Notes: generated from the letters alone by a model not told the origin. A stretch of 64,000 nt of DNA from Candidatus Cloacimonetes bacterium HGW-Cloacimonetes-3 (GCA_002840645.1 PHBO01000010.1:60470-124469), one strand, 5' to 3'. Positions 22,575-40,403 are shown, counted from the first letter of the stretch. Numbers and translations are program-made.

Positions 22575-22746
22575 ACTTGGTGGGTAGCATAGGTGCTTAG
22601 CAATATCAGTGGTTCATAAGCTCTATGTATTCGCATCGTAAACACAATATTCAGCCTTGCTTGCAGGTCATATCCTTCCCGTAACCCTCCCGTATCGGAT
22701 ATGGGAGGGTTACGGGAAGCTTTATGGCAATAAACAGTCAAAATCA
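22575..22746 (+). repeat. ~165-bp dispersed repeat with 11-bp-unit hairpin, copy 1 (left border of adhesin island)
   Basis: Ungapped match to 40477-40641 (about 21 mismatches in 165 bp, counted by eye); hairpin arms 22675-22695 / 22699-22719. Confidence 0.9.
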
Positions 22747-22929
22747 TAATCCCTTATGGACATGTATGATACCAACCTATTCAATTGGAGATAGAACAAT
22801 ATTATCCGATTACACTAAGGCAAAAATAACTTCCACTCTCCAACCTCCACTTATCACCCATATACGAGGCAAAAACATATCCTGTGGGAGTGGTATCCTT
22901 GTAATTTACCGCAGAGGGAATTTTTCTTC

Positions 22930-23442
22930 TTGACATTAATATGGCAGTGAGGATTTTGCATTCTCGAGCTTGAGTGATTATCATAATTATCAGTTAATTT
23001 ACGGTAATTAGGGTAGTTAAGTTGTACGTGTGTAGCTTGGTTTTTTTAGCAGGCTGCATGCAGATGCATGAGAGGTTTTATGCGCAGAAAGACAGCTTTT
23101 CCAGTTGTTACCTCCTTGCTTTACCTCTTTAATGAGGCAGTGGAAAAATCCGCCTGCCTTCCCTACCACCCCTCCCTAAAGTTAGATACTCCCGCTTTAC
23201 GCAACCATAAATGCTTTTCAATCCCACTCAAAAAAGATAATGAGATATAGCGGAGGAAATATGCTTACACTCAGCAATGCCCTAATTGATATAATCGTCG
23301 CACATTATGCTTACTTGGGCATGGCTGATAATTTGCATAAGTCTTTCATAGTTTCTTATGAACATCAAGAACAATCATGGGGAGCGTTATCGATACCCAT
23401 ATATTACTAAACTAATAACCATATTTACTTCAAGGAGTAAAG
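22930..23442 (+). promoter_or_regulatory. Long conserved structured 5' region of adhesin gene A (candidate cis-regulatory RNA)
   Basis: Colinear blocks shared with 29849-30356; compensatory stems; ATAAT-CGTCGCAC-ATTAT hairpin at 23291-23308. Confidence 0.6.
23261..23410 (+). CDS. Possible 49-aa upstream ORF in leader A (MLTLSNALIDIIVAHYAY...)
   Basis: GGAGG SD 5 nt before ATG; ungapped paralog at 30174-30305; coding status doubtful. Confidence 0.25.
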   Translation: MLTLSNALIDIIVAHYAYLGMADNLHKSFIVSYEHQEQSWGALSIPIYY

Positions 23443-26400
23443 ATGAAACGAATACTACTGTTAATTGTTCTTGCCGTTGTGGCTTGCCTTGGCTTTGCCC
23501 AAGTTGCCAGCTACACATTCGGCTATTCCTCCGGTACATACTCAGAAATTACAGGTGGCACGGTTCTTGGAACCGCCACAGTTGGCGGTTCTGGAGCTAC
23601 TGCTCTGGATAACGTCACCTACTTCAACACACCAATTCCCTTCCTCTTTCCTTTTAATGGAAGGATGTATAATCAGGTTGGGATAAATTCCAACGGTTAC
23701 CTAATCTTTGGCGGATCAACTGCTTTTGGTGAATCAAGTCAGATCAGCAGTACAACTGTCGCTGAAGGTGCGGTTGTAGTTTACGGTAAAGATAACCAAG
23801 CTATTGTAGTTGATGGCAGCTTAGGCGAAATCCGCTACCAAACCCTGGACACCGCCCCCAACCGGGTTTTCGTAATCCAATGGAAGAACTTCAAAGATTA
23901 CAGCGGTGCTGCTACAGACCTTCTTAACTTCCAAATCAAACTGTATGAAGCAACCAAGGTAGTGGAGTTTGTATATGGTGCCTGTACGGTTTTAACTGCT
24001 GAATCCTGCCAAGTAGGTTTGCGTGGAACATCAAATGCAGATTTCTTTGCCCGTACTACCACCACAAATTGGGCAGCAAGCACAGCAGGTGCAGCAAACA
24101 CTTCCACAATGACAGTTTCTTCTACTGTTAAGCCTGCAAATGGTACCATTTATACCTTCACCCCTCCCGCAGCTACAGCTGTTCCCAATGTGGCAACTGT
24201 GGTTTCTCCCACAAACGCGAACCCAAGTGTGTTTGCTAATGCAACACTAAATTGGGCAGATGGCGGAGGCTGGACTAATGGTTTCAAGCTGTATTTCGGG
24301 ACAACTGACCCAGCTCCTTATGTAGGAGATTTGGGCTATGTAACCAGCTACGACCCTCCCGGGGATATGCCTTTCAGCACTCCCTATTTTTGGAAAGTAG
24401 TGCCCTATAACAGCTTTGGTGATAACATTACCGGAACTCAGTGGACATTTACTACTTCCAGTGCTCCCCTTACCGGAACTAAGACTATTGACCCTGCCGG
24501 CTCGGGAGTGAATAATTACACCACTTTCACAGCGGCGATCAACGCTCTAAACGGTGCCGGAGTTGGAACAGGTGGCGTTACCTTTAACGTTGCCGACGGC
24601 ACTTATAACGAAAGTCCGCCTGCTATTACAACCACAGGGACAGCATTAAACCAGATTATCTTCCAAGCTGCTGTTGGTGCCAATCCTGTAGTAACCCCTG
24701 CAGGTGGATCGTTGACCTTTGCCTTTAAGCTAACCGCTGCAGATTATGTAACCTTCGATAATATTGATGTTACTGGTCCTACTACCCTTATCTACGGGTA
24801 TTGGTTGGCAGCGCTTACAGCTAATGGCGCAACCAACAACACTATCAAGAACTGTACTATTACTGTGCCTTATGGTAGCAGCAGTAACTACGGTATCTAT
24901 TCTTTGGGTGTTGTCGATGGTGCAAACAGCAATAACACTTTCTTAAACAACAGTATAGTTTCTGCCTACTATGGTATCTACCTTACCGGTAGCTCTACTG
25001 CAGGTAGCGAAGCCCAGAACCTGAATATTCAGGGAAACACCATCACCGGAGCAAGAAACTATGGCATATACGTGGGTTATGGGTTAAACACCGTTATCCA
25101 GTATAACAACATCGGTTTCTTTGCCGGCGGAACTACCGCTTATTATGGCATATATGTGTTTGGCACAACCAGCACATATAACGTACACCATAATACTATC
25201 AGCGGTGGTTACACATCCAGCACGGTGTATGCCTTGTACAATTCCAGCGGTAATACTACTTTCGCCAACAACGATGTAACCAACCTATACAACACAAGCA
25301 GTTCAGGTTGGTATGGTTTCTACGCTGGTGGCGGGAACACAATCTGGAATGGCAATAATATTTATGGTATAGCTAATACCGGTACTGCTGCTGTTTATAC
25401 TGCCTATATCACAACCGGAAATCATGATTTCCTGAACAACAACCTCTATGATATAGCCACAGGTGGAACCTCCCTTTACGGTTTTTATGTAATTGGTGGA
25501 ACCACACACAACATCTATAACAACAAAGTGTATAACCTGCGCTATACCGGAGCATCCTCCGGTGTTGTTTACGCTATACACCTTGGTGGCGGAACCACAA
25601 ATAATGTTTACAACAACATGGTTTATGATCTGCGTGCTGCAAGCTCCACATCCCTTGCTACTTCACCGGCAATCAGAGCCTTCAGCATCAGTAGCGGAAC
25701 CACGAATAATGTATGGAACAACACTGTATTCCTTAATTCCGCAGGTTCCAATACTGCGTTCTCTACTGCAGCATTGTATGTGTTAACCAGTACCAGCGCT
25801 ATAGACCTGAAAAACAACATCTTTGTGAACAAGAGCACCCCCGGTGCTACAGGCAGAGTTGTTGCTTTCTGGAAAACCTCCGCAGGTGTTAGCAACCTCT
25901 CAGCCACATCCAACAAGAATATCTACTTTGCGGGTGTGACACCAGGTGCTGCCAATTTGATAGGCTACTTCAGCACTACCGCCTATCCAACACTGGATGA
26001 GTATAAAACTATGGCTGCCACCAAGGATCAAGGCTCTTATACCGAAGATGTGCCCTTTGTGAGAAACACTGATCCCTACGACATGCATATCGATACTGCC
26101 ATTACCACCCGCGTGGAAGGCAATGCCATCGTTATCGTGCCCCCGGTCAGCTTTGATATCGATAACCAAGCGCGTCATGCCTCAACCCCCGATATCGGTG
26201 CTGATGAAGGCAATTTCACAGCTCCTGCCGGCGCACCCGGCTTAGTAACTCTGCTTGCTCCTACCGATGCAGCACAAGGGATCAATCCCCTCACCGGTCA
26301 GCTTAGCTGGAGTGCCCCAGCTGTAGGTGGAGCTCCCACAGAATACTGGGTTTACGTATCCGATGACCCTGAAGAATTGTACAGCCAAGGCAACAATGTC

Positions 26401-29349
26401 TTGTCTGTGCCTACTACCAGCCTGGCTCTAAGTGCCATAGAAGGTTGCACCGTTGACTTCAACGGTGAATATTTCTGGGCTGTTCAGGCTCATAACAGTG
26501 AAGGTGAATCCGATGCTTTAGATCCTAACTACCAAATATGGAGCTTCAGAACTTCCGCTCAAATGGCTGCTTCTTCAACCCTGGCTATTGGCAATGCCTG
26601 GCCCAGTAATCCCAAAGCCGGAACCATTGTGGTTACAAATCTGGGTACAAGCGAGATGATAATCAATGCTACCGGTTCTACCGAATTCGTTTTCGGTGGT
26701 ACAGGGCAGTACACTATCCCTGCCAGCAGCAGCTATAATGTACCTTTCACCTTCAATGCTCCCGAAACATTGGGTGCATACACCGGAAGCATCACACTTA
26801 CCCAAACCAGCCCCAGTGCTTCCAGTATAGTGATAGCAGTAACCGCAAACGTTTCTACAGAAATATCGTTTGGGACAGGCACTACCAATATGTTCCAACC
26901 TGTGTATCCATACTATGGCTACACATATTCTCAAACCATATATCCTGCGTCATGGTTTAGTTATCCTGATGGCTACCGCATCGAAAAGCTCCAGTTCTAC
27001 TGGAATCCTGCACTTGCACCCTTAAACTCAAATTCGTTCAAGGTTTGGATGGGGCACACATCCCAAAGCCAATTCCCCTCCACTGTCACCAGTGCTTCCT
27101 GGATACCTTTAACAGGACTTTCCCTTGTCTTCGACGGAACCTGGGATATCACCGCCGGTGCAGGATGGAAGGAACTTGTCTTACAAACTCCATTCATCTA
27201 CAACCGCACAGACAACCTTGTGATCGCTATGGATGAAAATGCCGCTGGTTACGACACCTCTGGAAACACTACAACCTCTTTCTTCCATGGAACAACCACT
27301 TCAGGAACATACTATGGTATGTCCTGTTACGACGATGGTGATAACTTCGATCCTGCAAACCCCGATGCAATAGCACAATCAAGCTTTACAAGCTATGCTT
27401 CCAGACAGGGTTTCCCCAATACCAAGTTCTTCGTGGGTGAAGTTCCTACCAATCCTGTAATTGCAGTAACTCCTGCAAGTTGGGATTATGGCACTGTGGT
27501 AGTTAATACAACCAACACCAAGCAATTCACCATTCAGAATAACGGTGGCGGCACATTAACTATCAATGGTATCACCCCTGCAAGCAGTGGCTATTTCACC
27601 CTTACCAACCTGCCCGTGGGTTTCCCTGCCACTCCTGTAAACCTTGGTACCGGACAATCGATGACCTTCAGCGTGCAATATCTGCCAACCGCTGCCGGAA
27701 CACATAGCGCAGCATTTACCATTGACGATAACTTAGACGATTTTGTGGTAAACGTTAATGCCGTGTGTGTCGATCCCCGCATCACCAGCCTGCCCCATAC
27801 TCAGAACTTCGATGGCGTAACTGCTCCTGCCTTGCCACTTGGCTGGACGGCTTATAAGAGCAATGCTTCATCGTCCCTAATCGCCTCTACCACATATGCG
27901 CAAAGCACTCTCAACAGCGTGTATATGTACAACTACACAACCTCCGAGACTATGCGGCTGATTAGCCCTCAAAGTACCGTTGCGCTAAACACAGCCAAGC
28001 TTAGTTTCTACGCCCGTAGCGGTTCTGCCGGTTACGTGCTTAAGGTGGGAACTGTTAGTGCCCTTGATGGTACAGGTGTATTTACCGAACTGGCATCTTA
28101 CACCTTAACTACAACCTTCACACAATATATGCTGCCCTTATCTGCCTATGCCGGAACCGACCAATATCTATGCTTCCAGCATGGTGCAACAAGCACATAC
28201 CAAAGCATATATGTAGATAACTTCCAGTTAGATTTGTTAGTGGCAAACGATATGGCTGCTACAAGTATAACCGGTAATAATGCAGGCTTCGTTGGAACAC
28301 CGATAACTCATACAGTAAATGTGATTAACAACGGAACCGCAGCCCAATCTGCCTACACTGTGTATCTCAAGAGAGCAGGTGGCGCAAGGTTTGCTACCCT
28401 TGTAGTGAATACTCCAATCGCTGCCGGCGCAACCGCTGCCATCCCCATTACCTGGACTCCTGCAACTCAGGAAACCTACAGTATTCAAGGTGAAGTAGAG
28501 CTTACCGGCGATGCTGTGTCTGCCAACAACATCACCGCCTCCAGCATTGCTTTCACAGTATATGCAGCAGGCAGTTTTGTGGAAAGCTTTGAAGGCGGGG
28601 TTATGCCTGCTGGTTGGACTGTCCGCAATGCTGATGGTGGAACCTATAGCTGGGAAGTATTGGCATCCCTACCCAAGAGCGGGACATACTCTGCCCGAGT
28701 TCGCTGGGAATCTACTTCCTTGCAAAACGATGACTGGTTGATTACTCCTGCACTGCAGTTAAGCAACACAGTAACAGACGTAATTAGCTTCTGGATGGCG
28801 AGAACCAGCACATCCTGGCCTGAAACATACGAAATCCGCCTCTCCACCACCACAAACGAAATTGCTGCTTTCACCAATGTTCTGGAAGCAAGTGATTTGA
28901 GCACAGTGGCGATAAACACCTACATACAGAAGTCATTTAATCTGGATGCATACGGAAATGCTGTAGTTTACTTAGCTATCCGTTACACAGGTCTTGATGA
29001 ATATTATCTGCATGTAGATGATTTCGTTGGACCTCCCTTGTACACAGTTGCAAACCTTAGTGCACCGGTTGTAAGTATCGAACCCGTCGGTGCAAACATC
29101 CAGCTTAGCTGGGCAGCTGTAACCAATGCAACTCAATACATCATCTCTGCCTCGAGTGATCCTTACACCGGATTCACTCAGTTAGCAGCAACTGCAAGCT
29201 TGAACTACACTGTTGTAGCTCCTGCTGCTGCAATGAAGTTCTACAAAGTTGTAGCTTCCAATGCACCTCTTACAAAACAAGCTGTGAAACCTCCCCTATC
29301 CACAGAGGAACAGCTTCGTAAGGATGCTCTTGAAAAGAAATACAAATAA
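23443..29349 (+). CDS. Giant secreted modular adhesin-like protein A (1968 aa): N-terminal module, Fn3-like, parallel beta-helix, choice-of-anchor D/ASH-like, cleaved-adhesin/choice-of-anchor J-like, CARDB-like, shared C-terminal domain
   Basis: Signal peptide; GGVTFNVADGTYNE...PDIGADE beta-helix block; QFTIQNNGGGTLTI; ESFEGG...DDWLITP...YYLHVDDF. Confidence 0.85.
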   Translation: MKRILLLIVLAVVACLGFAQVASYTFGYSSGTYSEITGGTVLGTATVGGSGATALDNVTYFNTPIPFLFPFNGRMYNQVGINSNGYLIFGGSTAFGESSQISSTTVAEGAVVVYGKDNQAIVVDGSLGEIRYQTLDTAPNRVFVIQWKNFKDYSGAATDLLNFQIKLYEATKVVEFVYGACTVLTAESCQVGLRGTSNADFFARTTTTNWAASTAGAANTSTMTVSSTVKPANGTIYTFTPPAATAVPNVATVVSPTNANPSVFANATLNWADGGGWTNGFKLYFGTTDPAPYVGDLGYVTSYDPPGDMPFSTPYFWKVVPYNSFGDNITGTQWTFTTSSAPLTGTKTIDPAGSGVNNYTTFTAAINALNGAGVGTGGVTFNVADGTYNESPPAITTTGTALNQIIFQAAVGANPVVTPAGGSLTFAFKLTAADYVTFDNIDVTGPTTLIYGYWLAALTANGATNNTIKNCTITVPYGSSSNYGIYSLGVVDGANSNNTFLNNSIVSAYYGIYLTGSSTAGSEAQNLNIQGNTITGARNYGIYVGYGLNTVIQYNNIGFFAGGTTAYYGIYVFGTTSTYNVHHNTISGGYTSSTVYALYNSSGNTTFANNDVTNLYNTSSSGWYGFYAGGGNTIWNGNNIYGIANTGTAAVYTAYITTGNHDFLNNNLYDIATGGTSLYGFYVIGGTTHNIYNNKVYNLRYTGASSGVVYAIHLGGGTTNNVYNNMVYDLRAASSTSLATSPAIRAFSISSGTTNNVWNNTVFLNSAGSNTAFSTAALYVLTSTSAIDLKNNIFVNKSTPGATGRVVAFWKTSAGVSNLSATSNKNIYFAGVTPGAANLIGYFSTTAYPTLDEYKTMAATKDQGSYTEDVPFVRNTDPYDMHIDTAITTRVEGNAIVIVPPVSFDIDNQARHASTPDIGADEGNFTAPAGAPGLVTLLAPTDAAQGINPLTGQLSWSAPAVGGAPTEYWVYVSDDPEELYSQGNNVLSVPTTSLALSAIEGCTVDFNGEYFWAVQAHNSEGESDALDPNYQIWSFRTSAQMAASSTLAIGNAWPSNPKAGTIVVTNLGTSEMIINATGSTEFVFGGTGQYTIPASSSYNVPFTFNAPETLGAYTGSITLTQTSPSASSIVIAVTANVSTEISFGTGTTNMFQPVYPYYGYTYSQTIYPASWFSYPDGYRIEKLQFYWNPALAPLNSNSFKVWMGHTSQSQFPSTVTSASWIPLTGLSLVFDGTWDITAGAGWKELVLQTPFIYNRTDNLVIAMDENAAGYDTSGNTTTSFFHGTTTSGTYYGMSCYDDGDNFDPANPDAIAQSSFTSYASRQGFPNTKFFVGEVPTNPVIAVTPASWDYGTVVVNTTNTKQFTIQNNGGGTLTINGITPASSGYFTLTNLPVGFPATPVNLGTGQSMTFSVQYLPTAAGTHSAAFTIDDNLDDFVVNVNAVCVDPRITSLPHTQNFDGVTAPALPLGWTAYKSNASSSLIASTTYAQSTLNSVYMYNYTTSETMRLISPQSTVALNTAKLSFYARSGSAGYVLKVGTVSALDGTGVFTELASYTLTTTFTQYMLPLSAYAGTDQYLCFQHGATSTYQSIYVDNFQLDLLVANDMAATSITGNNAGFVGTPITHTVNVINNGTAAQSAYTVYLKRAGGARFATLVVNTPIAAGATAAIPITWTPATQETYSIQGEVELTGDAVSANNITASSIAFTVYAAGSFVESFEGGVMPAGWTVRNADGGTYSWEVLASLPKSGTYSARVRWESTSLQNDDWLITPALQLSNTVTDVISFWMARTSTSWPETYEIRLSTTTNEIAAFTNVLEASDLSTVAINTYIQKSFNLDAYGNAVVYLAIRYTGLDEYYLHVDDFVGPPLYTVANLSAPVVSIEPVGANIQLSWAAVTNATQYIISASSDPYTGFTQLAATASLNYTVVAPAAAMKFYKVVASNAPLTKQAVKPPLSTEEQLRKDALEKKYK

Positions 29350-29372: not shown

Positions 29373-29409
29373 GAACCCCCGGTGTGATTACCGGGGGTTC
29401 TTTTTTTTT
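29373..29409 (+). terminator. Intrinsic terminator of gene A
   Basis: GAACCCCCGGT / ACCGGGGGTTC stem followed by T-run. Confidence 0.9.
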
Positions 29410-29575
29410 CACAAGAAACTACGGTAAACTTAATCAAGTGAGGTAAAGCGGTAATGAAGCTGGCTTGGCTTCTTGGCTCTCTTTTAATAGTGGGTTGTTA
29501 TTATATGTACCCAACTGGGGGTTTTTTACCCAGCCAGGCATTTAATATCAGCTAATGCCAAGTGACTACTAACAT

Positions 29576-29636
29576 TGATTTTGACTGTTTATTGCCATAA
29601 AGCTTCCCGTAACCCTCCCATATCCGATACGGGAGG
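29576..29636 (-). repeat. Inverted, truncated copy of the 165-bp repeat
   Basis: 61 bp identical to the reverse complement of 22686-22746. Confidence 0.9.
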
Positions 29637-29848
29637 AGAATACATAGTGCTTGTTAATCACTTGTAGGGTAAAAACCCTAAGCTACCCTCCAAGTTTGAG
29701 AGCGAGCCGACTTTTTTTTTAAGACATCTACATTCATACATATCCCTTACTAAGTAGCGACTTCAAATGCAAGTTAAACTAAGCACTTAGGATAAAGGTG
29801 AAATCTATAATACTTCCATAAGTCCCGGGGCGCAGAGAATCTTTCTGC

Positions 29849-30356
29849 TTGACACCATTTGGGTAACAAAGTTTTATTGTTCAGAGCTTGAAACATGAAC
29901 ACCATTTACTTATTAAGTGGACGTGTGTATAGTAGTTAACCAATGAATATCGTTATCTGGAAATAGTTGCCGGATAACGTGCAAGAGCATAAGAAGTTTT
30001 ATGAACCGACAGACAACTTACCGGGTTGTTACCTCCTTGCCAAACCTCGTTTTTGAGGCGACGGAAGAATTCGCATGTTCGCCTCATCAAATCACTTCTT
30101 TTAACCATCATGCGCTTAAGAGCGTTTCAACATCCCCCAGAAAAAACACAAAATGAGATATAGCGGAGGAAATATGCCTACACTCAGCAATGCCCAATTT
30201 GATATAATCGTCGCACATTATGCTATATGTGGCAATGCTGATTGTATGTACAAGTCCTTCACGGATCCTTCTAAACATCAAGAACAAATATGGGGAGCCT
30301 TATAGCCTCCCTTTAACCAGAAACACAAATACACATATTTACTTCAAGGAGTAAAG
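29849..30356 (+). promoter_or_regulatory. Long conserved structured 5' region of adhesin gene B
   Basis: Homologous to 22930-23442; TTGACA at 29849; hairpin motif at 30204-30221; CATATTTACTTCAAGGAGTAAAGATGAA identical to leader A. Confidence 0.6.
30174..30305 (+). CDS. Possible 43-aa upstream ORF in leader B (MPTLSNAQFDIIVAHYAI...)
   Basis: GGAGG SD; ungapped paralog of 23261-23410, but differences are mostly non-synonymous. Confidence 0.25.
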   Translation: MPTLSNAQFDIIVAHYAICGNADCMYKSFTDPSKHQEQIWGAL

Positions 30357-33300
30357 ATGAAGAAATTACTACTTATAACCGTCTTGTGCATGTTGGCAGC
30401 CTTTGGTTTTGCCCAGTTAATGAGCGAATACAGCTTTGCCTACAGTGCCGGAACCTATACAGAAATTACCGGTGGTACGGTTTTAGGAACCACAACTTCT
30501 GATGATCAGAAATTTGTGACTCCTCTCACCCCTGCCGGAGGAACTGGAACCACCGGTATTGGCTTCCCCATCGGGTTTAACTTTACTTTTGGTGGCGTAG
30601 TGTATGACCGTGTTGCGATAAACAACAACGGCTGGATTAGTTTGGGTCAATCTGCCCTCACTCCTTCCATTAACATGGCTTCTACCAGTTCTTACTTCCC
30701 GCTTGGTTCCACCTCAACAATTTCACCCACTCAGTTAGTGGGTCGTATTGCCGGAATGTCTTTGGACTTGCAGGGACAAACAGATTCTGAGCTTCGTATC
30801 GAAACCGTTGGTACTGATCCCGATCAGGAATTGGTAGTCCAATGGAAGAACTATCGCGAATATGGTTCATCGGGACAAAGCTATAACTTTCAGATTCGCC
30901 TGCAGCAGAATGGCAACAAAGTTGTAGTTACCTATGGTACGGTAACAAACGGTGCCACTCCTTTCGTAGCCCAGGCTGGCTTGCGTAATGAGCCCGCAAC
31001 CCCGGCTACTAACTTCAAAAACCTTTCCACAACTACAGACTGGACTAATCCTGCTGTCGGTGGAACTGCTGCTGCACAATTGACACTCTCCGATGCAGTT
31101 TATCCTCCCAGTGGAACCATATATACTTGGGCTCCTCCCGTTGCAGGTTTACCACCCAATCCCGCCGCATTAGTCAGCCCCGCAGATGCCGGAACAGGGG
31201 TTTTTCCTGAAGCCACATTAAACTGGGCATCTGGCGGTGGAATACCTACCGGATACAAACTGTATTTCGGAACAGATGATCCCCCCACAAATATCGAGAA
31301 TGGCACAGACATGCTTGATGTTACTACTTACGACCCTGATGGCTTAATGCCATTCGACGCAACATATTATTGGCAGGTTGTTCCGTATAACGAGATAGAT
31401 GATGCATCAGATTGCCCCATCTGGAGCTTCACAACTATTTCGGATCCCACTGTTTTCAGCGATGAGCTGCCTTATATGGAAAACTTCGATACTGTAACTA
31501 TACCGACACTACCTTATGGGTGGACAACCAGAGTAACCGATGTCTCTACTTATGGCTACGTAAAGACTGTAGCTACAGGTTATTCTACCCCCAATAGAGT
31601 AGCATTTTACAACTCAAGTGATACCGCTTCAGATCTGATCCTGATCTCTCCCCTGATTGATCCTGCCCTAAATACGCTCAGAGTGAAGTTCTGGGCTACC
31701 GGTGGCACAGGTTATACCCTTCAGGTTGGAACTGTTGATGTATCCGGTCAATCCGCTGTTTTCACATCGGTGCAAACAGTGAACGTAGCAAGTGGCTGGG
31801 CACAGTATAGCGTATCTCTTGCTGCTTATGCAGGAACAAATCAATACATTGCCTTCAGGCATGGACATGGTGACACATATAGAACCATCTATATAGACGA
31901 TGTAAGCATCGAAGTTCCTGCTCCCATTGCACCTGAAGCCGCAACACTGGTTTCTCCTGCTGATGCTTCGATAAACCTCCTGAATCCAATACTCAAATGG
32001 ACACCTTCCGCTACCGGCGAACCTCCAACAGGTTACAAGGTGTACATGAACGATTCCGGTACATTCAGTGAAGGCGACGTTATATACAACGGAACAAACA
32101 CTTCCTTCACAACTACTACCACTGCTTATGGTCGTACTTATTACTGGCAGGTTGTCCCTTATAATGCCACAGGTCCTGCCACCGGTAACTCCACCAGGAG
32201 CTTCACAGTGGTTACCGAAACTCAGCTTGCAGAAAGCTTCGAACCAACCTCTTTCCCGCCAGCAGGCTGGGCAAACGGAAGCACTGGAAACTGGACACGC
32301 AGCACGTCATATCCTGTTGATGGAGTTGGCACTGCATATAAATATGGCTCTTCCACGGCGCAGTACATCCTATCAGCTCCGAGATGCACAATTGATGGTT
32401 CCAGCACTCTGGATTTCTGGACTGCTTCTGGTTCTACATCGGGCACTTTGCAGGTTGTGTATTCTGAAGACCGTACAACCTGGACACAGATTGGTGCTGA
32501 TATTACTTATGCAGCGACATACACAATGTACAACAATGTAATAGACCTCAGCAGCCTTGCCGGTAATAACTATTACATTGGCTTCCGTACGGGACTTTAT
32601 AGTACAAGTTACTATGTGGACAAGGTTATTGGTCCAGAAATCACTGCGGAAGCCCCAGGTCCTGTGACCCAGGTCTTACCTGCTGATTTGGCAATAGACC
32701 AAGAAGTTCGTCCCACCCTTACATGGACAGCAGCAGTCACAGGTGGCATACCTACGGGTTATAAGGTTTACTGTGACGAAACGGGTGCCTTTACAGCTCC
32801 TATCGCAACTGTTACAGCATCCCCTTATACCTTCACTTCAGACTTAACCTGGGAACACACCTATTATTGGAAAGTAGTAGCTTATAATGGTACCGGCGAT
32901 GCGGTTGGCAGCACAACCCGTTCCTTTACCGTAAAAGCTGATCCCACTATCACTACTTTCGCTTACGTGATAGATTTCGGCACCACCACGTCTGATCCAT
33001 TCCCTCCCACTAATTGGAGCAGAATGGACGGTCTTTACGGTGGCACCTATGCTTCTGGTTCTCAATGGATTATGGATGATTGGTTAAACGTTACTACTCC
33101 AGCAAATAAAGCCGCGAAGATCAATATCTATGGCACATCTCGTTATGGCTGGTTGGTAACACCTCCCATCAACATTCCGACTGATAATTTTGAGCTTAAG
33201 TTCGACATGGCTCTGTTAGATTGGAACGGCACTATCCCTCCAGTCGCAGGTGAACAAGCCGATGATAAGCTTATAGTTGTGATGAGTGACAGCCCTACGA

Positions 33301-35549
33301 TGGACTCTCCCATTATCCTGAGGGAATGGAATAACACCATGTCAAACGATGTGTTTGATAATATTCCCGCTACCGGCGAAAATTATGTTATACCATTGAT
33401 AGGTATTACCGGAATCAAGTATTTTGCCTTCTATGGTGAATCTACTGTTTCCGGTGGTGATAACGACCTTATGATAGATAACATCATAATCCGCCAAATT
33501 CCTGCAGGTGCTCCGGATAATGTTACTCTAAACAGCCCTGTAAATCATGATGCTACAGTTAATCCTGAATCAGTAACACTTAGCTGGACTCCTGCCATAA
33601 CCGGTGGTAATCCTGATGGCTACAGTATTTTTGTTGGTGAGAACCCCATTGATCCTGCCAACGAATACTTTGGCGATTATGAGTACTCTACTACGAATAC
33701 ATCATTCGACCTTAGTGCTGAAGATATCGTGATTGGTTACGAGCAAACCTTGTATTGGGCAGTATGGCCCTACAATGGTGATCCGGCTCAGTATCCTGAT
33801 CCGAATGACCCCAGTTTCCAAACCTTCGATTTCACCACTATCGCAGATCCACGCATCGTTAGTTTGCCCTATGTGCAGAACTTCGATGGCGTATCTACAC
33901 CTGCGCTGCCGGTTGCTTGGACTGGTTACAAGAGCAATTCCGGTATGACTGTAACTACTTCTACAAGTACTCCCCAAAGTACGCCTAACAACGTATATAT
34001 GTATAATAGCAGCTACACATCAGATACATTGCGCTTGATCACCCCGGAAGTAGTAGTAGCCATGAACACCGCTAAAATCAGCTTCTACGCCCGTAGCAGT
34101 TCTGCCGGTTATGTTTTGCAGGTGGGAACAGTTAGTGCCCTTGATGGCACCGGTGTGTTTACCGAGTTAGCCTCGTATCCACTCACAACCACCCACACGC
34201 AATATACCCTGTCTCTCACCGGATATGTAGGAACAGATCAATATATCTGCTTCCAGCACGGTCAAGGCGGGTCATATCGCAGTCTTTACATTGATAGCTT
34301 TATGATGGAAGAAGTGATGGCAAACGACTTGGCTGCCACAGCCGTTTCGGGACCCGGAATAGGTACTGCCGGAACAGAGCTTAGCTACGATGTAACCGTA
34401 TTGAACAACGGAACTGTCTCGCAATCATCCTACAATGTCCATTTAAAGAGATTTGGTGACGATAGACTTGCTTCGATAGCAATAACAGACCCTCTTGCCC
34501 CCGGAGCATCTGCTGTCCACACCATCTACTGGACTCCTACCACCGGCGGTGATTATGTCCTCGTGGGTGAAGTGGAATTAACCGGTGACGAATATGCCGG
34601 CAATAACGAAAGTGCCACCATGAACAGTAGCATCTATGCTGCCGGTACTTTCCTGCCACAGATTGGTGATATTGCCAGCGCAACCACTTCGTACTACACA
34701 CCCATCAATGCGTATTACAAAAACAATCTGAGCGAAACAGTCTATCTGGCACATGAGATGCAAGCCACATCAGGCACAATCAATGCAATCATCTATCAGA
34801 ATAACTACACTCAGGATGTAACCAAACCTGTCAAAATCTGGATGAAACACACCACGGAAGCTAATGTATTTACTGCATACTTACCTTTTGCAGGCTACGA
34901 ATTGGTCTTCGATGGTAATGTATTTATGCCCCAGGGTGTAAATGCAGTGGTTATTCCTTTGGATACTCCCTTTGCTTATACCGGTGGAAATCTGGCAGTA
35001 CGTGTTTACAGCGTATGGGAAGATTTCTATTATAGCTTGAATGATAAGTTCTACTATACTGCATCTCCGGAATATCCAGACCGCACCAGATACTTCCAGG
35101 CAGATCAAACCTCCGCGTTCGATCCCATCGCCCTTACGGATTATAATGATGTTGCCTTCACAGGAAACTTGCTAAGCTATATCCCGAATACTGCATTCGT
35201 GATGAGCCCTGCTGTTCCTATCATCACGATTGATGCACCTGCGCTTGCCGTGTCTCAGAATGGCACAAATGCCCAATTGGATTGGGATGCCGTAGCCGGC
35301 GCATACGCTTATCGCGTGTATGCCTCCGACGATCCATACCTATTCGAAGGTGCTCCTATTGCCACCGTATATACAAACACCTATAGTGCTGCCTTTGCTG
35401 CCAATGCAAAGAAGTTCTATCAGGTTGTGGCAATATCCTATCACCACACTGATAGTTCTAAGGTGATGAATCCGGCTGCTGTGATCGGGTTCGATAACAG
35501 CAAACTGAAACACAAAGCCACCATCAAGAACACAGGAAACAAGAAATAA
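30357..35549 (+). CDS. Giant secreted modular adhesin-like protein B (1730 aa): Fn3-like, multiple cleaved-adhesin-like, CARDB-like modules, shared C-terminal domain
   Basis: Signal peptide; repeated YYWQVVPYN Fn3-like units and (E/Q)NFD...W...LISP...YIDD adhesin units. Confidence 0.85.
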   Translation: MKKLLLITVLCMLAAFGFAQLMSEYSFAYSAGTYTEITGGTVLGTTTSDDQKFVTPLTPAGGTGTTGIGFPIGFNFTFGGVVYDRVAINNNGWISLGQSALTPSINMASTSSYFPLGSTSTISPTQLVGRIAGMSLDLQGQTDSELRIETVGTDPDQELVVQWKNYREYGSSGQSYNFQIRLQQNGNKVVVTYGTVTNGATPFVAQAGLRNEPATPATNFKNLSTTTDWTNPAVGGTAAAQLTLSDAVYPPSGTIYTWAPPVAGLPPNPAALVSPADAGTGVFPEATLNWASGGGIPTGYKLYFGTDDPPTNIENGTDMLDVTTYDPDGLMPFDATYYWQVVPYNEIDDASDCPIWSFTTISDPTVFSDELPYMENFDTVTIPTLPYGWTTRVTDVSTYGYVKTVATGYSTPNRVAFYNSSDTASDLILISPLIDPALNTLRVKFWATGGTGYTLQVGTVDVSGQSAVFTSVQTVNVASGWAQYSVSLAAYAGTNQYIAFRHGHGDTYRTIYIDDVSIEVPAPIAPEAATLVSPADASINLLNPILKWTPSATGEPPTGYKVYMNDSGTFSEGDVIYNGTNTSFTTTTTAYGRTYYWQVVPYNATGPATGNSTRSFTVVTETQLAESFEPTSFPPAGWANGSTGNWTRSTSYPVDGVGTAYKYGSSTAQYILSAPRCTIDGSSTLDFWTASGSTSGTLQVVYSEDRTTWTQIGADITYAATYTMYNNVIDLSSLAGNNYYIGFRTGLYSTSYYVDKVIGPEITAEAPGPVTQVLPADLAIDQEVRPTLTWTAAVTGGIPTGYKVYCDETGAFTAPIATVTASPYTFTSDLTWEHTYYWKVVAYNGTGDAVGSTTRSFTVKADPTITTFAYVIDFGTTTSDPFPPTNWSRMDGLYGGTYASGSQWIMDDWLNVTTPANKAAKINIYGTSRYGWLVTPPINIPTDNFELKFDMALLDWNGTIPPVAGEQADDKLIVVMSDSPTMDSPIILREWNNTMSNDVFDNIPATGENYVIPLIGITGIKYFAFYGESTVSGGDNDLMIDNIIIRQIPAGAPDNVTLNSPVNHDATVNPESVTLSWTPAITGGNPDGYSIFVGENPIDPANEYFGDYEYSTTNTSFDLSAEDIVIGYEQTLYWAVWPYNGDPAQYPDPNDPSFQTFDFTTIADPRIVSLPYVQNFDGVSTPALPVAWTGYKSNSGMTVTTSTSTPQSTPNNVYMYNSSYTSDTLRLITPEVVVAMNTAKISFYARSSSAGYVLQVGTVSALDGTGVFTELASYPLTTTHTQYTLSLTGYVGTDQYICFQHGQGGSYRSLYIDSFMMEEVMANDLAATAVSGPGIGTAGTELSYDVTVLNNGTVSQSSYNVHLKRFGDDRLASIAITDPLAPGASAVHTIYWTPTTGGDYVLVGEVELTGDEYAGNNESATMNSSIYAAGTFLPQIGDIASATTSYYTPINAYYKNNLSETVYLAHEMQATSGTINAIIYQNNYTQDVTKPVKIWMKHTTEANVFTAYLPFAGYELVFDGNVFMPQGVNAVVIPLDTPFAYTGGNLAVRVYSVWEDFYYSLNDKFYYTASPEYPDRTRYFQADQTSAFDPIALTDYNDVAFTGNLLSYIPNTAFVMSPAVPIITIDAPALAVSQNGTNAQLDWDAVAGAYAYRVYASDDPYLFEGAPIATVYTNTYSAAFAANAKKFYQVVAISYHHTDSSKVMNPAAVIGFDNSKLKHKATIKNTGNKK

Positions 35550-35590: not shown

Positions 35591-35619
35591 ACCCCCGGTG
35601 TAACAGCCGGGGGTTTTTT
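35591..35619 (+). terminator. Intrinsic terminator of gene B
   Basis: ACCCCCGG / CCGGGGGT stem then TTTTT; same stem sequence as the gene A terminator. Confidence 0.85.
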
Positions 35620-35799
35620 CGTTTTACTTATAAAAGCCCGCTTCTCCCTGCTTTCAGCCTTGTGCTATCTCTGCTGCGGTATTTTATGAGCTAAACGGAA
35701 GGGGGAAGGGGGTGATGGGGGGGGGGGCATGTGGCAGGTGGCGGTGTGAGGGCGATACCTCATCACCCCATCACCCCATCACACATGCTTGAATTACTT

Positions 35800-35848
35800 A
35801 TGCATTACGCATGAAATACGGATGCGATGCGTAATGCATGCGTAATGC
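35800..35848. repeat. Palindrome with 11-bp unit ATGCGTAATGC
   Basis: ATGCATTACGCAT (35800-35812) / ATGCGTAATGCAT (35827-35839); unit duplicated at 35827-35848. Confidence 0.75.
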
Positions 35849-35925
35849 TACTGCAATTCGTGAGAACAGGAAAAGTGTAGCGATTGTGTTTCAGTTCATT
35901 GTTCATATACCCCGTATATACACCT

Positions 35926-36014: not shown

Positions 36015-36160
36015 TTATCTGTCGCTACCAACTGTAACCTATGACCTGACACCTGCCACCTGGCACTTTAGATACCTTAAATAACAAGCATAAAGGATGT
36101 AATAGTGGAAATTCTTCCTCTATTCTATGCCATACTTCGGGTAAAAACACTTTTTTCTGC

Positions 36161-36684
36161 TTGACATATATTAACTGCAAAGCAACATAGTATTGCATGG
36201 TGGATACACCAATGTAGTACCATACTATGCGTGTGGTATTAGCGTCGTTAGCAGAAACAGTTAAGTTATCTTAGCTTGTTTTGTTGTTTTGTATGTTTTA
36301 TATAATTGCCGGCAGATGAGCCAGAGGAAGTTACCTTGAGTTTATTGTTTTGCGTACCGTTAACTAACCCGGAAGCCTACAAGGCTGAAGCGGGTTTACT
36401 GCGTATGCAAAGCACGGCAATTACCACAACCACTAAGCTTCAAAATCAAACAGAAGTCTCTACTTACGGAAAACCTTGTGTCCAGAACTACGCACACTCT
36501 TTGCATAATAATCATCGCACATTATTACATCGTCTGTGTGCCTGCGTGAGAATGCTCCGTTTTCCATCCACCCTTAACCCTCAAAAACAAATGTGGCTAT
36601 GCCCCCATACAAATGAGGCAAAGCCTATAAACTAAACAGAATATCCTCTTCAAGAAAAACGTCTAAACAAGGAGTTTTCTTACT
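36161..36684 (+). promoter_or_regulatory. Long structured 5' region of adhesin gene C (diverged member of the leader family)
   Basis: TTGACA at 36161; TAATAAT-CATCGCAC-ATTATTA hairpin 36506-36527; TCAAAAACAAATGTGG block 74 nt downstream; large nested stem 36304-36422. Confidence 0.5.
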
Positions 36685-39600
36685 ATGAAGAAATTATTAA
36701 TACTATTATGCGTATTGGCAATAGCCGGAATGGCTTTCGCCGATGTGATCATCGGAACCGGGACATCCACCGGATACTATCCCGGGAGTACTTACTATAA
36801 CTATTACCGTTCAGCTGCGGTATTTACTGCCGCGGAATTGGCTGCCGGATCGGGTACTATTACAGCTCTGCAATGGTATTGCGGTACTGCAAATACTACT
36901 ACGCCCATCCCGTTTAAGATTTATATGAAAACCACTGCCAATGTAACTTTGGCAGCAAATACCTGGGCACTTGAATCTGCCGGTGCAACTGAAGTATTTA
37001 ATGCTTCAGTGACGGTTAATGCCACGGGTTGGTTCAATTTTGATATCACCGACACCCCTTATACTGCAGGTACTAACCTGGAGGTATTGGTTGAAACTGG
37101 AAGTGCGTCTTATGTAAGCCCCTATGTAAAGTGGAATTACACCACTACTACACCTACTTACAAGATGATAGCTACTTATGCAGACACCACTATCCCTACT
37201 TCTCTTACTACTAACTATTTACGCCCCAATATTAAATTTGTGGGCATTACTTCTACTGTATTCCCTGAACCTACAAACCATGTAACCGGTTTTGCTGCCG
37301 GCACACTGAATTACACCACAATTCAGTTAAACTGGACCGGTGCTACCGGTGCTCAGTTGCCAGGCAACTATCTGATTCAGGCAATAAAAGGTGCCGGAAC
37401 ATACGCTGCCGTAGGTGATGGTGTTCCTGTGGCAAATGATGCTGTGTGGACAGATAACAACGCCGCAACTAACGTAGCCCATGTAGTAGGTGCTAATACC
37501 TATACCTTTACAGGTTTAACGCCTAATACGGCTTATGAATTCAAAATCTGGCCTTATACCAATAGCCTGACAGCCATTAACTTCAAGACCGATGGGATAA
37601 TCCCCACTGTTAATGCCTCCACCCTTGATCCCACTGTCTCTACATACCCGTGGTTAGTGGATTTCGGTACATTAACTACAGATTGGCTACCCGCTAACTG
37701 GGCAAAATACAGTGGTGTATTGGCAAGTCCATCTGTACTTACTGCTGCCAGTGGCTCTTGGTACCAAGATGACTGGTTAAATGTAACCTCTCCTCTTAAC
37801 AAAGCTGCCAAGGTAAACATCTATGGAACAACAGCAGCAGGCAACTGGATTGTCTCACCTCCCATCGTAATGCCCGGAGCCGGCTATCAGCTGGAGTTCG
37901 ACCTTGCCTACATGGCATGGAATAGCCTCGGCACTGCTCCCGTAGCAGATGGAACCGGAGATCGCTTTGAAGTTCTTATCGGTGATGGCACAACCTGGAC
38001 ACCTGCTAATATAGTTCGTTCCTGGGATAATGCTGCAAGCCCGTATGTGCTGAATAATGTCAGCCCTGCCGGCGAACACATCACTCTCGATGTTTCCGGT
38101 GTCACCGGAACCAAATACATCGCCTTCTATATCCACAACGGTGATGTTGGTGATCGTGATAACGACTTCATGCTCGACAACGTGTTACTTCGCGAGACTC
38201 CTGCCGGAGCTCCTGATCCTGTAACATTGGGTTCTCCCGCAGCCGAAGCTACCGGCTTGGCTAAAAACGGATTCAACTTCACCTGGACACCTGCCATCAC
38301 CGGCGGCGAAGCTGATGACTTCACAATCTTCATCTCCACAGATGAATTTGATGTGTTAAGTCAGTTCAGTGCCACCACCGGCGGAACCTCCCTCAACCCT
38401 GTGGGCATGCCCTACGAAAGCGGAACATTTGCTTTCACCTATGAGCAACGCTACTACTGGCAAGTATTTGCCAATGGCGCAGGAGAGGAGATTGGCTCTG
38501 ATGTACGCTGGTTCGAAATTGAAGCCGATCCTTCAATAACTCTTCCTCACACCCAGAGCTTCGATGATCTGGCCATACCCGCAGGCTGGACACAGACCTA
38601 TTCCGGTACTGTAACTTCCAACCGTTGGACCGCATCAGCCACTACTAATGCCGGTGGCACAGCAAACGAAATGATGGAAACTTGGGCATCCGGCGTGGGT
38701 ATTACCCGCCTTATCTCTCCTCCCATCGTTACTGATGGCTATGGTAGTGTTGCAGTTAACTTCAACACCCTGTATGATGATTACGGCACTGGCGTTACTG
38801 CCAGAGTGCAGTATAGCCATGATCTCGTAACCTGGTACAACACAGGTTGGTCTGCAGTTGGTGGTGGCGGAAACGTTGGTCCCGGTAACTACACAACTCT
38901 TATCACCGGTCTCAGCGCTCCCGTAACTTACATTGCATGGGCAATGGATGGCGATCACTATCAGTTTGACTACTGGTATGTTGATAATGTTCTCCTATCT
39001 GCACCGCTTGATCATGATGTAGGTATTGTTAGCATAGATATGGCTGAAGTGGTTCCTGCTGTGGCGATGAATCCCAAAGCCACTATCATTAATAATGGTG
39101 CAAACACCGAAACCTTCAATGTTACCATGACAATCGGAGCCAACTATAGCAGCACTAAAGAAGTTACAGCTATTACGTCCGGCAACAGCACTCAGGTTGT
39201 GTTCGATGCTATCACTCCTGTTATTTTCACAGCAGAGGATGTAGACGTCACATGCCTGTTAGCTACTGATGAGAATACAGCTAATGACGCTCAAACCGGT
39301 GTTCTGGTTTGCCTTCCTTTGGATGTGCAAGCTTATGCAGATGTTGCCTATGATCCAGGTTCAGTAAATGATGGTCCCGCTACCTTCAACCTTGCAACTC
39401 CCGGAACCATTACTGACCTTACTGCTGCAACCCCATGGTCTGGTTATTTCCTTGCCGGTGCAGACTGGATGAATGGCGGCTGGTATGGTAAGCAATACGT
39501 TGATAGTGCAAGTTCACCCTTCTGGCAGATAGATGAAGTAACCGGTGACGGTACCCTTCTGGGAACCGGAACGGTTGTGATGTCCGGCTTTGCCTACGAT

Positions 39601-40372: not shown

Positions 40373-40403
40373 AGACAGCCTCGCAAGAGGCTGTCTTTTT
40401 TTT
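40373..40403 (+). terminator. Intrinsic terminator of gene C
   Basis: AGACAGCCTC-GCAA-GAGGCTGTCT then T-run. Confidence 0.92.

Follow-up and report, generated by a model that had tools for sequence, protein, structure and literature searches.

In the tnaC-tnaA and mgtL/mgtA systems of enterobacteria, attenuation by a leader peptide is coupled to Rho or to RNA refolding, and the leader frames are 10-30 codons long. The Cloacimonadota, a phylum without cultured members, abound in anaerobic digesters, groundwater and sediments; to our knowledge, nothing is known about gene regulation in this phylum. Here we describe a leader element that precedes three large tandem genes for surface proteins (A, 23443-29349; B, 30357-35549; C, 36685-40350; all on the + strand) in a stretch of 64,000 nucleotides from Candidatus Cloacimonetes bacterium HGW-Cloacimonetes-3 (GCA_002840645.1 PHBO01000010.1:60470-124469). 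This whole stretch is called the window below. The element, a leader of ~480 nucleotides, combines a promoter, an irregular hairpin with a nearly invariant tip and, in most members, an extended upstream reading frame that spans the hairpin, and it very probably represents a real, transcribed cis-regulatory RNA family. It resembles tnaC and mgtL in its leader frame, in the C-rich, G-poor single strands that ribosomes would cover, in needing no intrinsic terminator and in a control that would act after initiation. It differs from them in that the frame comprises 90-120 codons, the encoded peptide is not conserved, and a hairpin of ~100 nucleotides with an invariant tip lies inside the frame. Moreover, the cassette is found here before dozens of unrelated surface-protein genes and not before one operon, and a role of Rho or of ribosome stalling is at most conjectural.

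A second precedent is found in Bacteroidota, where opsX elements of ~40 bp with a pause hairpin recruit UpxY in the leaders of capsule operons; opsX is a YGCGNAGCR hairpin in the non-template DNA strand that varies by locus, and the NusG paralogue is the first gene of the operon (PMC11685472). The present element shares with this system a related superphylum, a conserved hairpin element in the 5' leader of cell-surface genes and many copies per genome. Here, in contrast, a single invariant element is used, no YGCGNAGCR is present in the leaders and no NusG-like gene was detected in the window or the 96 genome-derived loci. Cis-acting leaders that carry an upstream frame are a known kind of element; the architecture and the regulon reported here are not described, and literature searches for a Cloacimonadota RNA motif returned nothing relevant.

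A first-pass annotation of the window had proposed a structured leader in front of each of the three genes, and all the sequence features on which it relied were recovered. TTGACA is present at 22930, 29849 and 36161, so that its distance to the following ATG (23443, 30357 and 36685) is 513, 508 and 524 bp, and is surrounded by a longer context, TTTCTNCTTGACA, in all three leaders. The 18-mer ATAATCRTCGCACATTAT is found at 23291-23308, 30204-30221 and 36508-36525 as described, and it has no match in the 64 kb beyond leaders A, B and C even when 3 mismatches are allowed (chance expectation 0.09). The CA-rich block TCAARAACAANNNTGG follows at 23365, 30278 and 36581 (chance expectation 0.26); its presence was confirmed, but the spacing of 75, 75 and 74 nucleotides given for it becomes 74, 74 and 73 when the count begins at base 1 of the 18-mer; this discrepancy is trivial. 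The outer stems that had been drawn around the 18-mer (CAGCAATGCCC/GGGCATGGCTG, CAGCAATGCC/GGCAATGCTG and GCACAC/GTGTGC) form in the minimum-free-energy folds. Likewise, the stems GCATGAG/TTTATGC and CATAAG/TTTATG exist, and they enclose the ribosome-binding site and ATG of an upstream reading frame. Leaders A and B are close paralogues, and C resembles them in islands only. Each gene is followed by a strong intrinsic terminator, indicating that each gene together with its leader is its own transcription unit.

In order to define the distribution of the element, the 18-mer was searched for as an exact match in 185,579 species genomes, which yielded 96 loci. About 87 instances belong to at least 36 genomes labelled Cloacimonadota, Cloacimonetes or Cloacimonas, or to short, probably mis-binned contigs, with up to 9 instances in a single genome; ~15 of the 96 loci are chance matches in other phyla, without any surrounding features. 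A scan of metagenomes gave at least 120 loci, the first 100 of which were scored with the full covariance model described below: 78 places matched it, and the 18-mer was present in more than 75 metagenome contigs. In real instances the 18-mer is always on the sense strand, mostly 125-260 nucleotides before an open reading frame that starts with MKK and a hydrophobic signal peptide and often exceeds 1000 residues. The leaders at two further loci, L073 and L034 (Candidatus Cloacimonas metagenome-assembled genome, MAG), are nearly identical to A/B and C. The recurrence of the motif in the same arrangement, in the window and across Cloacimonadota, is far above chance. A phage origin was rejected: the 5 matches in viral contigs are limited to the 18-mer, lie in AT-rich DNA and are due to chance.

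Complete family leaders were also observed on short contigs (L018, L028 and L083) of MAGs labelled Bacteroides, Sphaerochaeta and Desulfuromonadaceae. These contigs are probably mis-binned Cloacimonadota DNA, so that the motif could serve as a marker in binning checks.

Each member of the family folds individually into the same irregular hairpin of ~100 nucleotides. From base to tip it is built of a basal helix P1, short middle helices, a helix P2, an internal loop whose 5' strand is often CACUCU, and the nearly invariant tip AUAAU-CRUCGCAC-AUUAU. P1 reads CGAAGCA/UGCUUCG in many members, GGAGGA/UCYUUC in leaders A and B of the window and GGAAAAC/GUUUUCC in C, and for P2 many members have CCCGC/GCGGG and leader C has GCACAC/GUGUGC. 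Variant tips were limited to AUGAU..., ...CUUCGCAC... and AACAAU..., and the last six loop bases, UCGCAC, are intact in all of them. Both flanks of the hairpin are G-poor (9% G) and C/A-rich. The 5' flank often carries UCAAACAA, while the 3' flank carries the conserved AACCnUCAAAAUCAA, after which come a variable hairpin and then the main ribosome-binding site AAGGAG.

Base-pair covariation was evaluated in alignments of different origin. In a MAFFT alignment of 85 sequences 71.8% of the cells pair, compared with 35-41% when the partners are displaced by 1-3 columns. This alignment has a covariation score of 0.340, which none of 500 shuffles reached (0.155 when shuffled), and both-sided changes occur at every pair of P1 and P2. 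A covariance model, R1 (138 positions, 27 pairs), matches exactly three copies in the window, with 72-96 bits. Alignments built with this model gave scores of 0.372 for the genome set and 0.427 for the metagenome set (0.162 when shuffled); they lean towards the model's own structure, which the plain MAFFT alignment does not. Across the alignments, both-sided changes are seen at 20-22 of 25-27 pairs. The outer helices are therefore supported by covariation, the lack of which would have spoken against the first-pass annotation; all three scores stand against ~0.16 after shuffling (none of 500 shuffles reached them) and at most 0.196 with slid partners. RNAalifold returned no structure from a 483-column alignment because misaligned flanks swamped it, and recovered P2 and P3 after trimming.

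The 18-mer might alternatively be recognised as DNA. In that case ATAAT-N8-ATTAT would be the operator of an activator or repressor that binds as a dimer, or it would belong to a second promoter (TGATATAAT in A/B). Both arms of the inverted repeat are indeed invariant, and TGATATAAT, which spans the 5' arm in A and B, is a perfect extended -10 box. Nevertheless, the spacer CRTCGCAC is non-palindromic yet invariant, the orientation is always sense to the gene, and the helices around the 18-mer covary, which is relevant to a single strand only. Furthermore, an RNA contig at one homologous locus (L076, see below) crosses the element from ~300 nucleotides upstream, and TGATATAAT is limited to the A/B subfamily. 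Such a DNA-level function is very improbable in our opinion, and TGATATAAT was rejected as a true promoter on the last two grounds.

The hairpin does not correspond to a catalogued RNA family. Rfam 15 (4227 models, riboswitches and leaders included) gave no match at the gathering threshold in the 64-kb window. When the three intergenic regions were scanned with a permissive E-value, nothing was found over the hairpin except a reverse-strand match to STnc540 at 23214-23294 (15.5 bits, gathering threshold 38), and the best other matches were microRNA models on unrelated palindromes. Both scans agree with the previous proposal of an undescribed structured leader family. The metabolite riboswitch proposed alongside it is unlikely, as the regulon consists of mixed surface proteins and no intrinsic terminator is present inside the three window leaders. 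A conserved, structured leader with internal loops and no match to a known family could in principle be a sensor of a metabolite or an ion. However, the structure amounts to one extended hairpin of simple build that lacks both a multi-helix junction and a partner for a pseudoknot, and there is no terminator or obvious expression platform that would sequester the main ribosome-binding site: this site is found in a small loop formed locally and makes no pairs with the hairpin, and no alternating sequestering helix appears in the folds. A regulon of mixed surface proteins is not a pathway, and up to 9 or more copies per genome would also be out of character. Among all the explanations considered here, sensing of this type is the one to which we give the least credence. 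A search for a pseudoknot or other partner in cis detected no complement of the loop that is enriched or conserved anywhere in the leaders, suggesting that the loop is probably read in trans.

We then considered where transcription of the leaders begins. In most of them, including 20 of 28 new metagenome leaders, TTGAC is located 220-480 nucleotides 5' of the 18-mer (mode ~350), and the logo of the promoter family reads AAwwTTnTkC-TTGACA with TAnnTTG 17-23 nucleotides later. Since cTTGACA is also used by ordinary genes in the window, a housekeeping sigma factor is implied. Contigs from metatranscriptomes show RNA 5' ends 44-50 nucleotides after TTGACA at two homologous loci, L060 and L076. At L060 (TTGACA at 1390, 18-mer at 1706), RNA contigs of 5 metatranscriptomes begin at 1436-1443, two of them being joined to the sequencing adapter exactly at 1440, and coverage just upstream is zero in the seven runs that hold no contigs of the upstream gene (X5, X7-X11 and X14). 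A 30-mer that paralogues have in common interrupts the contigs at the 18-mer, and a separate contig, 1727-2119, runs on into the coding sequence. At L076, whose leader is of the window A/B type (TTGACA at 823, 18-mer at 1169, ATG at 1321), one RNA contig (867-1618) covers the leader, the hairpin and the coding sequence. The RNA 5' end at +46 to +50 is either the start site itself or a position up to 15 nucleotides inside the transcript. If it is the start site, a TAGATTTG box is located at -14 to -7. The 5' end at 1440 of L060 is 7 nucleotides after TAGATTTG. These data bear out the transcription of the leader in two homologues: the hairpin is transcribed from a start close to TTGACA and, at L076, the transcript is continuous with the coding sequence.

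The -10 region of the leader promoters resembles the Bacteroidota -7 box TAnnTTTG, paired here with a canonical TTGACA (L060, 1426-1440; window, 36188-36195). As far as such resemblance goes, Cloacimonadota promoters may be hybrids of the canonical and the Bacteroidota types.

The first-pass annotation overlooked a long upstream frame that passes through the hairpin, and this frame changes the likely mechanism. Relative to the 18-mer, ribosome-binding-site motifs have a sharp maximum at -200 to -160. In ~48 of 63 non-redundant leaders such a site is followed by ATG or TTG and by a frame of ~90-120 codons through the hairpin and the CA-rich block. The frame starts 3-40 nucleotides after the preceding in-frame stop and ends near +95 to +230, ~30-100 nucleotides before the main ATG. 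A frame through the 18-mer is likewise carried by 24 of 28 independent metagenome leaders. A stop-free frame across -201 to +120 is present in 43% of leaders, compared with 2.5% of dinucleotide shuffles and 0% on the reverse strand; the same test on the 28 metagenome leaders gave 39%, 3.2% and 0%, respectively. By this measure, the upstream frame is kept open by selection.

A real small-protein gene, with the hairpin merely lying in its coding sequence, would likewise display a long open frame whose position is conserved, together with a start codon and a ribosome-binding site. The composition of the frame argues against this possibility, which we hold to be highly improbable. Ten leaders of one subfamily start the frame at -162, or at -163/-165 in three of them (the copies L052 and L059 of this subfamily are near-identical and frame-shifted at the 18-mer), and these ten orthologous leaders have no conserved upstream-frame residues outside the RNA motifs. 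The invariant 18-mer itself is read in two frames, as IIVAHY in some members and as NNRRTL in others. Substitutions in the upstream frame show no excess at the third codon position (149/115/140 and 152/121/118 by position). Coding potential was consequently rejected, there being neither codon periodicity nor a conserved peptide. What is kept would be the act of translation through the hairpin and not the protein, and we judge it rather probable that the upstream frame is translated and matters. SecM, MifM and VemP are similar in that a frame of ~100 codons precedes a secretion-linked gene and runs into a hairpin region; unlike the present leaders, with their unconserved peptides and cargo genes, they have conserved arrest motifs, N-terminal targeting segments and secretion-machinery genes.

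In a common metagenome subfamily of low G+C content (L125, 4500-4660), ~3 tandem copies of a T-rich unit of ~45 nucleotides were observed in the leader, 5' of the hairpin. This insertion extends the open frame to ~190 codons.

The proteins encoded downstream are of mixed domain composition: choice-of-anchor J and D, cleaved-adhesin, CARDB, fn3, DUF4394 and beta-propeller with FGE-sulfatase. Given this diversity, the leader is not a mere passenger of a single gene family. Most complete leader-bearing proteins end in a common domain of ~75 residues, SW.AV.GA..Y.IY.S.DPY...FFKV.A, followed by a basic tail; it was seen in A (29169-29349), B (35370-35549) and C (40170-40350) as well as in L008, L027, L084 and others. 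This domain has no significant match in Pfam and may represent a second, Cloacimonadota-specific signal for sorting or anchoring. The leader had initially been described as standing before each giant adhesin gene, which proved too general. Two giant secreted neighbours (L070:1435-6924 and L028:299-6331, minus strand) that end in sorting domains of the type IX secretion system (T9SS; Por_Secre_tail/FlgD_ig) have no leader, and some leader targets are only 343-534 residues long. The leaderless T9SS giants show that the leader marks one class of surface proteins and not giant genes as such.

Taken as a whole, we propose a Cloacimonadota-specific promoter-plus-leader cassette in which a factor bound to the hairpin tip would gate translation of the upstream frame and so co-regulate secreted surface-protein genes by attenuation, a proposal whose chances of being right and wrong we see as evenly balanced. 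Transcription would start just 3' of the housekeeping-type C-TTGACA promoter and produce a 5' leader of ~450-500 nucleotides. The invariant tip would be the docking site of a putative trans-acting factor, probably a protein, which, once docked, would decide whether the hairpin is passed by translating ribosomes. During translation of the upstream frame, ribosomes would cover the C-rich, G-poor flanks and RNA polymerase would continue into the gene; when translation is blocked, the naked leader would be exposed to Rho-type premature termination or to decay. The outcome would be a translation-gated attenuation shared by many surface-protein genes. A more specific version, in which the system is confined to Cloacimonadota and one RNA-binding factor reads the tip within a long frame of irrelevant peptide, thereby switching a whole class of surface proteins together, seems doubtful at present.

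Several observations weigh against this proposal. The window itself was held by four groundwater DNA runs only and by no RNA run, and the RNA evidence comes from the two homologous loci L060 and L076, which belong to an organism other than that of the window. In most runs the depth of the leader is ~2-3x that of the coding sequence, but depth taken from contigs is an unreliable measure; the ratio is suggestive at most and was not used as evidence. The tip is strictly conserved in its stem as well as in its loop, which could also reflect recognition as DNA. About one fifth of the leaders have no frame through the hairpin. In A and B of the window the frame is split in two, frame 1 stopping just before P1. 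Many upstream frames start with TTG, and their translation is predicted from sequence. No candidate for the putative tip-binding factor was found. Finally, a Rho step specifically is a tentative element of the scheme, deduced indirectly, and we think it unlikely.

The same long leaders before very long surface-protein genes would also suit processive antitermination of the nut, ops or LoaP type, in which the hairpin or the CA-rich block would load a NusG-type protein or a Nus complex and the frame would be incidental. In LoaP of Firmicutes, lambda nut and rrn boxA-boxB, a protein reads a small leader stem-loop and modifies elongation, and a boxA-like CACUCUUUG is present in some members of the family. 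Indeed, the invariant stem-loop follows a partly conserved CAYUCU(U/G) strand which, in leader C, reads CACUCUUUG and resembles boxA (GCUCUUUA) ahead of a boxB-like hairpin; this resemblance is presumably no more than a lead, and the boxA-like form is weak or absent in many members, including A and B of the window. There is, in addition, neither sequence similarity to these systems nor an Rfam match, and the stem-loop here tips a much longer hairpin within an open frame. RfaH and ops-JUMPstart of Proteobacteria are similar in placing a short invariant element, regulon-wide, in long leaders of long surface-structure operons. They differ in that ops is a 12-nucleotide DNA element, GGCGGTAGnnTG, absent from the present leaders, whereas the helices here covary as RNA. 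With up to 2 mismatches, GGCGGTAGnnTG was not found in 22930-23443, 29849-30357 or 36161-36685, and its total in the window equals chance. The opsX sequence YGCGNAGCR occurs 5 times in the window, where chance would give 6.5, and never in the leaders. The Bacteroidota, with UpxY and opsX, do provide a precedent (PMC11685472). There, UpxY is encoded at its own operon, whereas no NusG- or RfaH-like gene was detected by tblastn in the window or in the 96 genome-derived loci (~735 kb) with E. coli NusG and RfaH as queries. The ops/RfaH or UpxY mechanism that the first-pass annotation had put forward consequently finds no positive support. Antitermination of any type also meets the difficulty that the targets are single translated genes, which are least in need of it, some being as short as 343-534 residues, and it leaves the depletion of stop codons unexplained. 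On balance we consider it unlikely.

A constitutive module without any switch was also considered, in which the leader would stabilise the mRNA and boost translation of envelope proteins, the CA-rich block acting as a translational enhancer. The surface-protein targets, the housekeeping-type promoter, the transcripts that are readily found in metatranscriptomes and the location of the main ribosome-binding site in a small loop are all compatible with such a module. Leaders of S-layer and ompA genes are comparable, being long and standing before the gene of an abundant envelope protein; they differ in having 5'-terminal stem-loops and no invariant tip or long open frame. The hairpin described here is ~300 nucleotides from the 5' end, so that it is no 5'-terminal protective stem, and a stabiliser needs neither a phylum-wide invariant 18-nucleotide tip nor an open frame that is kept. 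This explanation therefore strikes us as distinctly unlikely, a little more so than antitermination. The translation-gated attenuation proposed above remains our preferred reading, and the features of the three window leaders to which it refers are summarized in Table 1.

Table 1. Features of leaders A, B and C and terminators of the corresponding genes. Positions are those of the window; positions in brackets with a sign are relative to the 18-mer.
Feature	Position	Strand	Description
Leader A promoter	22918..22958	+	T-rich stretch, C-TTGACA 22930-22935, -10-like ATTTTG 22953-22958; fits the family logo; predicted start site near 22964-22968, at conserved GAGCTTGA
Leader A upstream frame 1	23080..23250	+	Ribosome-binding site GAGAGG 23070-23075, ATG 23080, TAG 23248; site and ATG within the small GCATGAG/TTTATGC stem; ends 1 nucleotide before the hairpin base
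Leader A hairpin	23252..23347	+	P1 GGAGGA (23252-57)/UCUUUC (23342-47); P1b UAUGC/GCAUA; P2 CAGCAAUGCCC/GGGCAUGGCUG; tip is the 18-mer; fold energy -31.5 kcal/mol, z -3.19; R1 72.0 bits, E 5.6e-12
Leader A invariant apical stem-loop	23291..23308	+	AUAAU-CGUCGCAC-AUUAU; exact matches
Leader A upstream frame 2	23261..23410	+	ATG 23261 (-30), TAA 23408 (+117); ribosome-binding site is the P1 5' strand (GGAGGA); crosses the 18-mer as IIVAHY, then the CA-rich block
Leader A CA-rich single-stranded block	23365..23380	+	TCAAGAACAATCATGG; family consensus AACCnUCAAAAUCAA; flanks G-poor
Leader A variable hairpin	23377..23400	+	UGGGG...CCCAU, from the fold; follows the CA-rich block and precedes the main ribosome-binding site; other family members also have a hairpin here
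Leader A main start region	23420..23445	+	AAGGAG 23433-38 in small stem-loop UUUACUU/AGUAAAG, ATG 23443
Gene A intrinsic terminator	29373-29410	+	3' of gene A
Leader B promoter	29842..29878	+	TTTCTGC-TTGACA (29849-29854), -10-like TTTTATTG
Leader B upstream frame 1	30001..30156	+	AAGAAG, then ATG 30001; TGA 30154
Leader B hairpin	30165..30260	+	P1 GGAGGA/UCCUUC; P2 CAGCAAUGCC/GGCAAUGCUG; 18-mer 30204-30221; fold energy -32.4 kcal/mol, z -2.57; R1 78.9 bits
Leader B upstream frame 2	30174..30305	+	ATG 30174 inside the hairpin, through the 18-mer, stop 30303; ribosome-binding site is the P1 5' strand
Leader B CA-rich block	30278..30293	+	TCAAGAACAAATATGG
Gene B intrinsic terminator	35591-35620	+	3' of gene B
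Leader C promoter	36154..36195	+	TTTCTGC-TTGACA (36161-36166), TAGTATTG (36188-36195) resembling the -7 box TAnnTTTG
Leader C upstream frame	36336..36635	+	Ribosome-binding site AGAGGAAG (36323-30), TTG 36336 (-172), 99 codons, TAA 36633 (+125); unsplit; crosses the hairpin (18-mer as NNHRTL) and the CA-rich block
Leader C hairpin	36468..36565	+	P1 GGAAAAC (36468-74)/GUUUUCC (36559-65); P2 GCACAC (36492-97)/GUGUGC (36536-41); 5' internal loop UCUUUGC; 18-mer 36508-36525; fold energy -23.3; R1 96.4 bits, E 5.3e-17
Leader C CA-rich block	36581..36596	+	TCAAAAACAAATGTGG; within C-rich, G-poor stretch 36566-36592
Leader C variable hairpin	36595..36625	+	GGCUAUGCC...GGCAAAGCC, from the fold
Leader C main start	36669..36687	+	AAGGAG (36669-74) in stem AAAC/GUUU, ATG 36685
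Gene C intrinsic terminator	40373-40403	+	3' of gene C

In all three leaders the main ribosome-binding site lies in the loop of a short stem (23420-23442, 30334-30356 and 36662-36680). This stem differs by subfamily (UUACU/AGUAA or AAAC/GUUU), and the helix may also covary. The terminators of genes A (29373-29400) and B (35591-35614) have a stem core in common (CCCCCGGTGT...CCGGGGG), from which it appears that the terminator module was evidently duplicated together with the gene and its leader.

Inverted repeats were observed 5' of the three promoters. Upstream of promoter A, a near-perfect palindrome of ~58 nucleotides (cttcccgtaaccctccc...gggagggttacgggaag) occupies 22669-22726, and a related copy, joined to flanking tgccataaagc in inverted orientation, is located upstream of promoter B at 29590-29640. 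These palindromes resemble a small intergenic repeat of the repetitive extragenic palindrome (REP) or miniature inverted-repeat transposable element (MITE) type, and Rfam gives only spurious microRNA matches to them. The spacer 5' of promoter C (35690-35860) contains G-rich/C-rich inverted repeats (gggggtgatggggggggg ... catcaccccatcaccccatcac) and a repeated gcattacgcatg / gcgtaatgcatgcgtaatgc palindrome.

For the biology of Cloacimonadota, a regulon is defined purely by sequence through one leader cassette that precedes up to 9 or more genes for surface proteins in a genome, and the leader marks which large secreted proteins belong together, apart from T9SS cargo. The family is suitable for submission to Rfam and helps annotators to recognise real start sites and leaders in Cloacimonadota MAGs. 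Its 18-nucleotide tip is a concrete RNA bait with which the regulator could be found. It is unusual for a bacterial leader to combine a long frame for an unconserved peptide with a conserved hairpin inside it, and this leader would be a useful test case for the interplay of translation, RNA structure and elongation control. If the proposed mechanism is true, a protein-bound roadblock within a long sacrificial frame would be a new logic of leader control: a factor gating the passage of ribosomes, and hence transcription or mRNA survival, would switch a class of surface proteins distinct from T9SS cargo jointly on or off.

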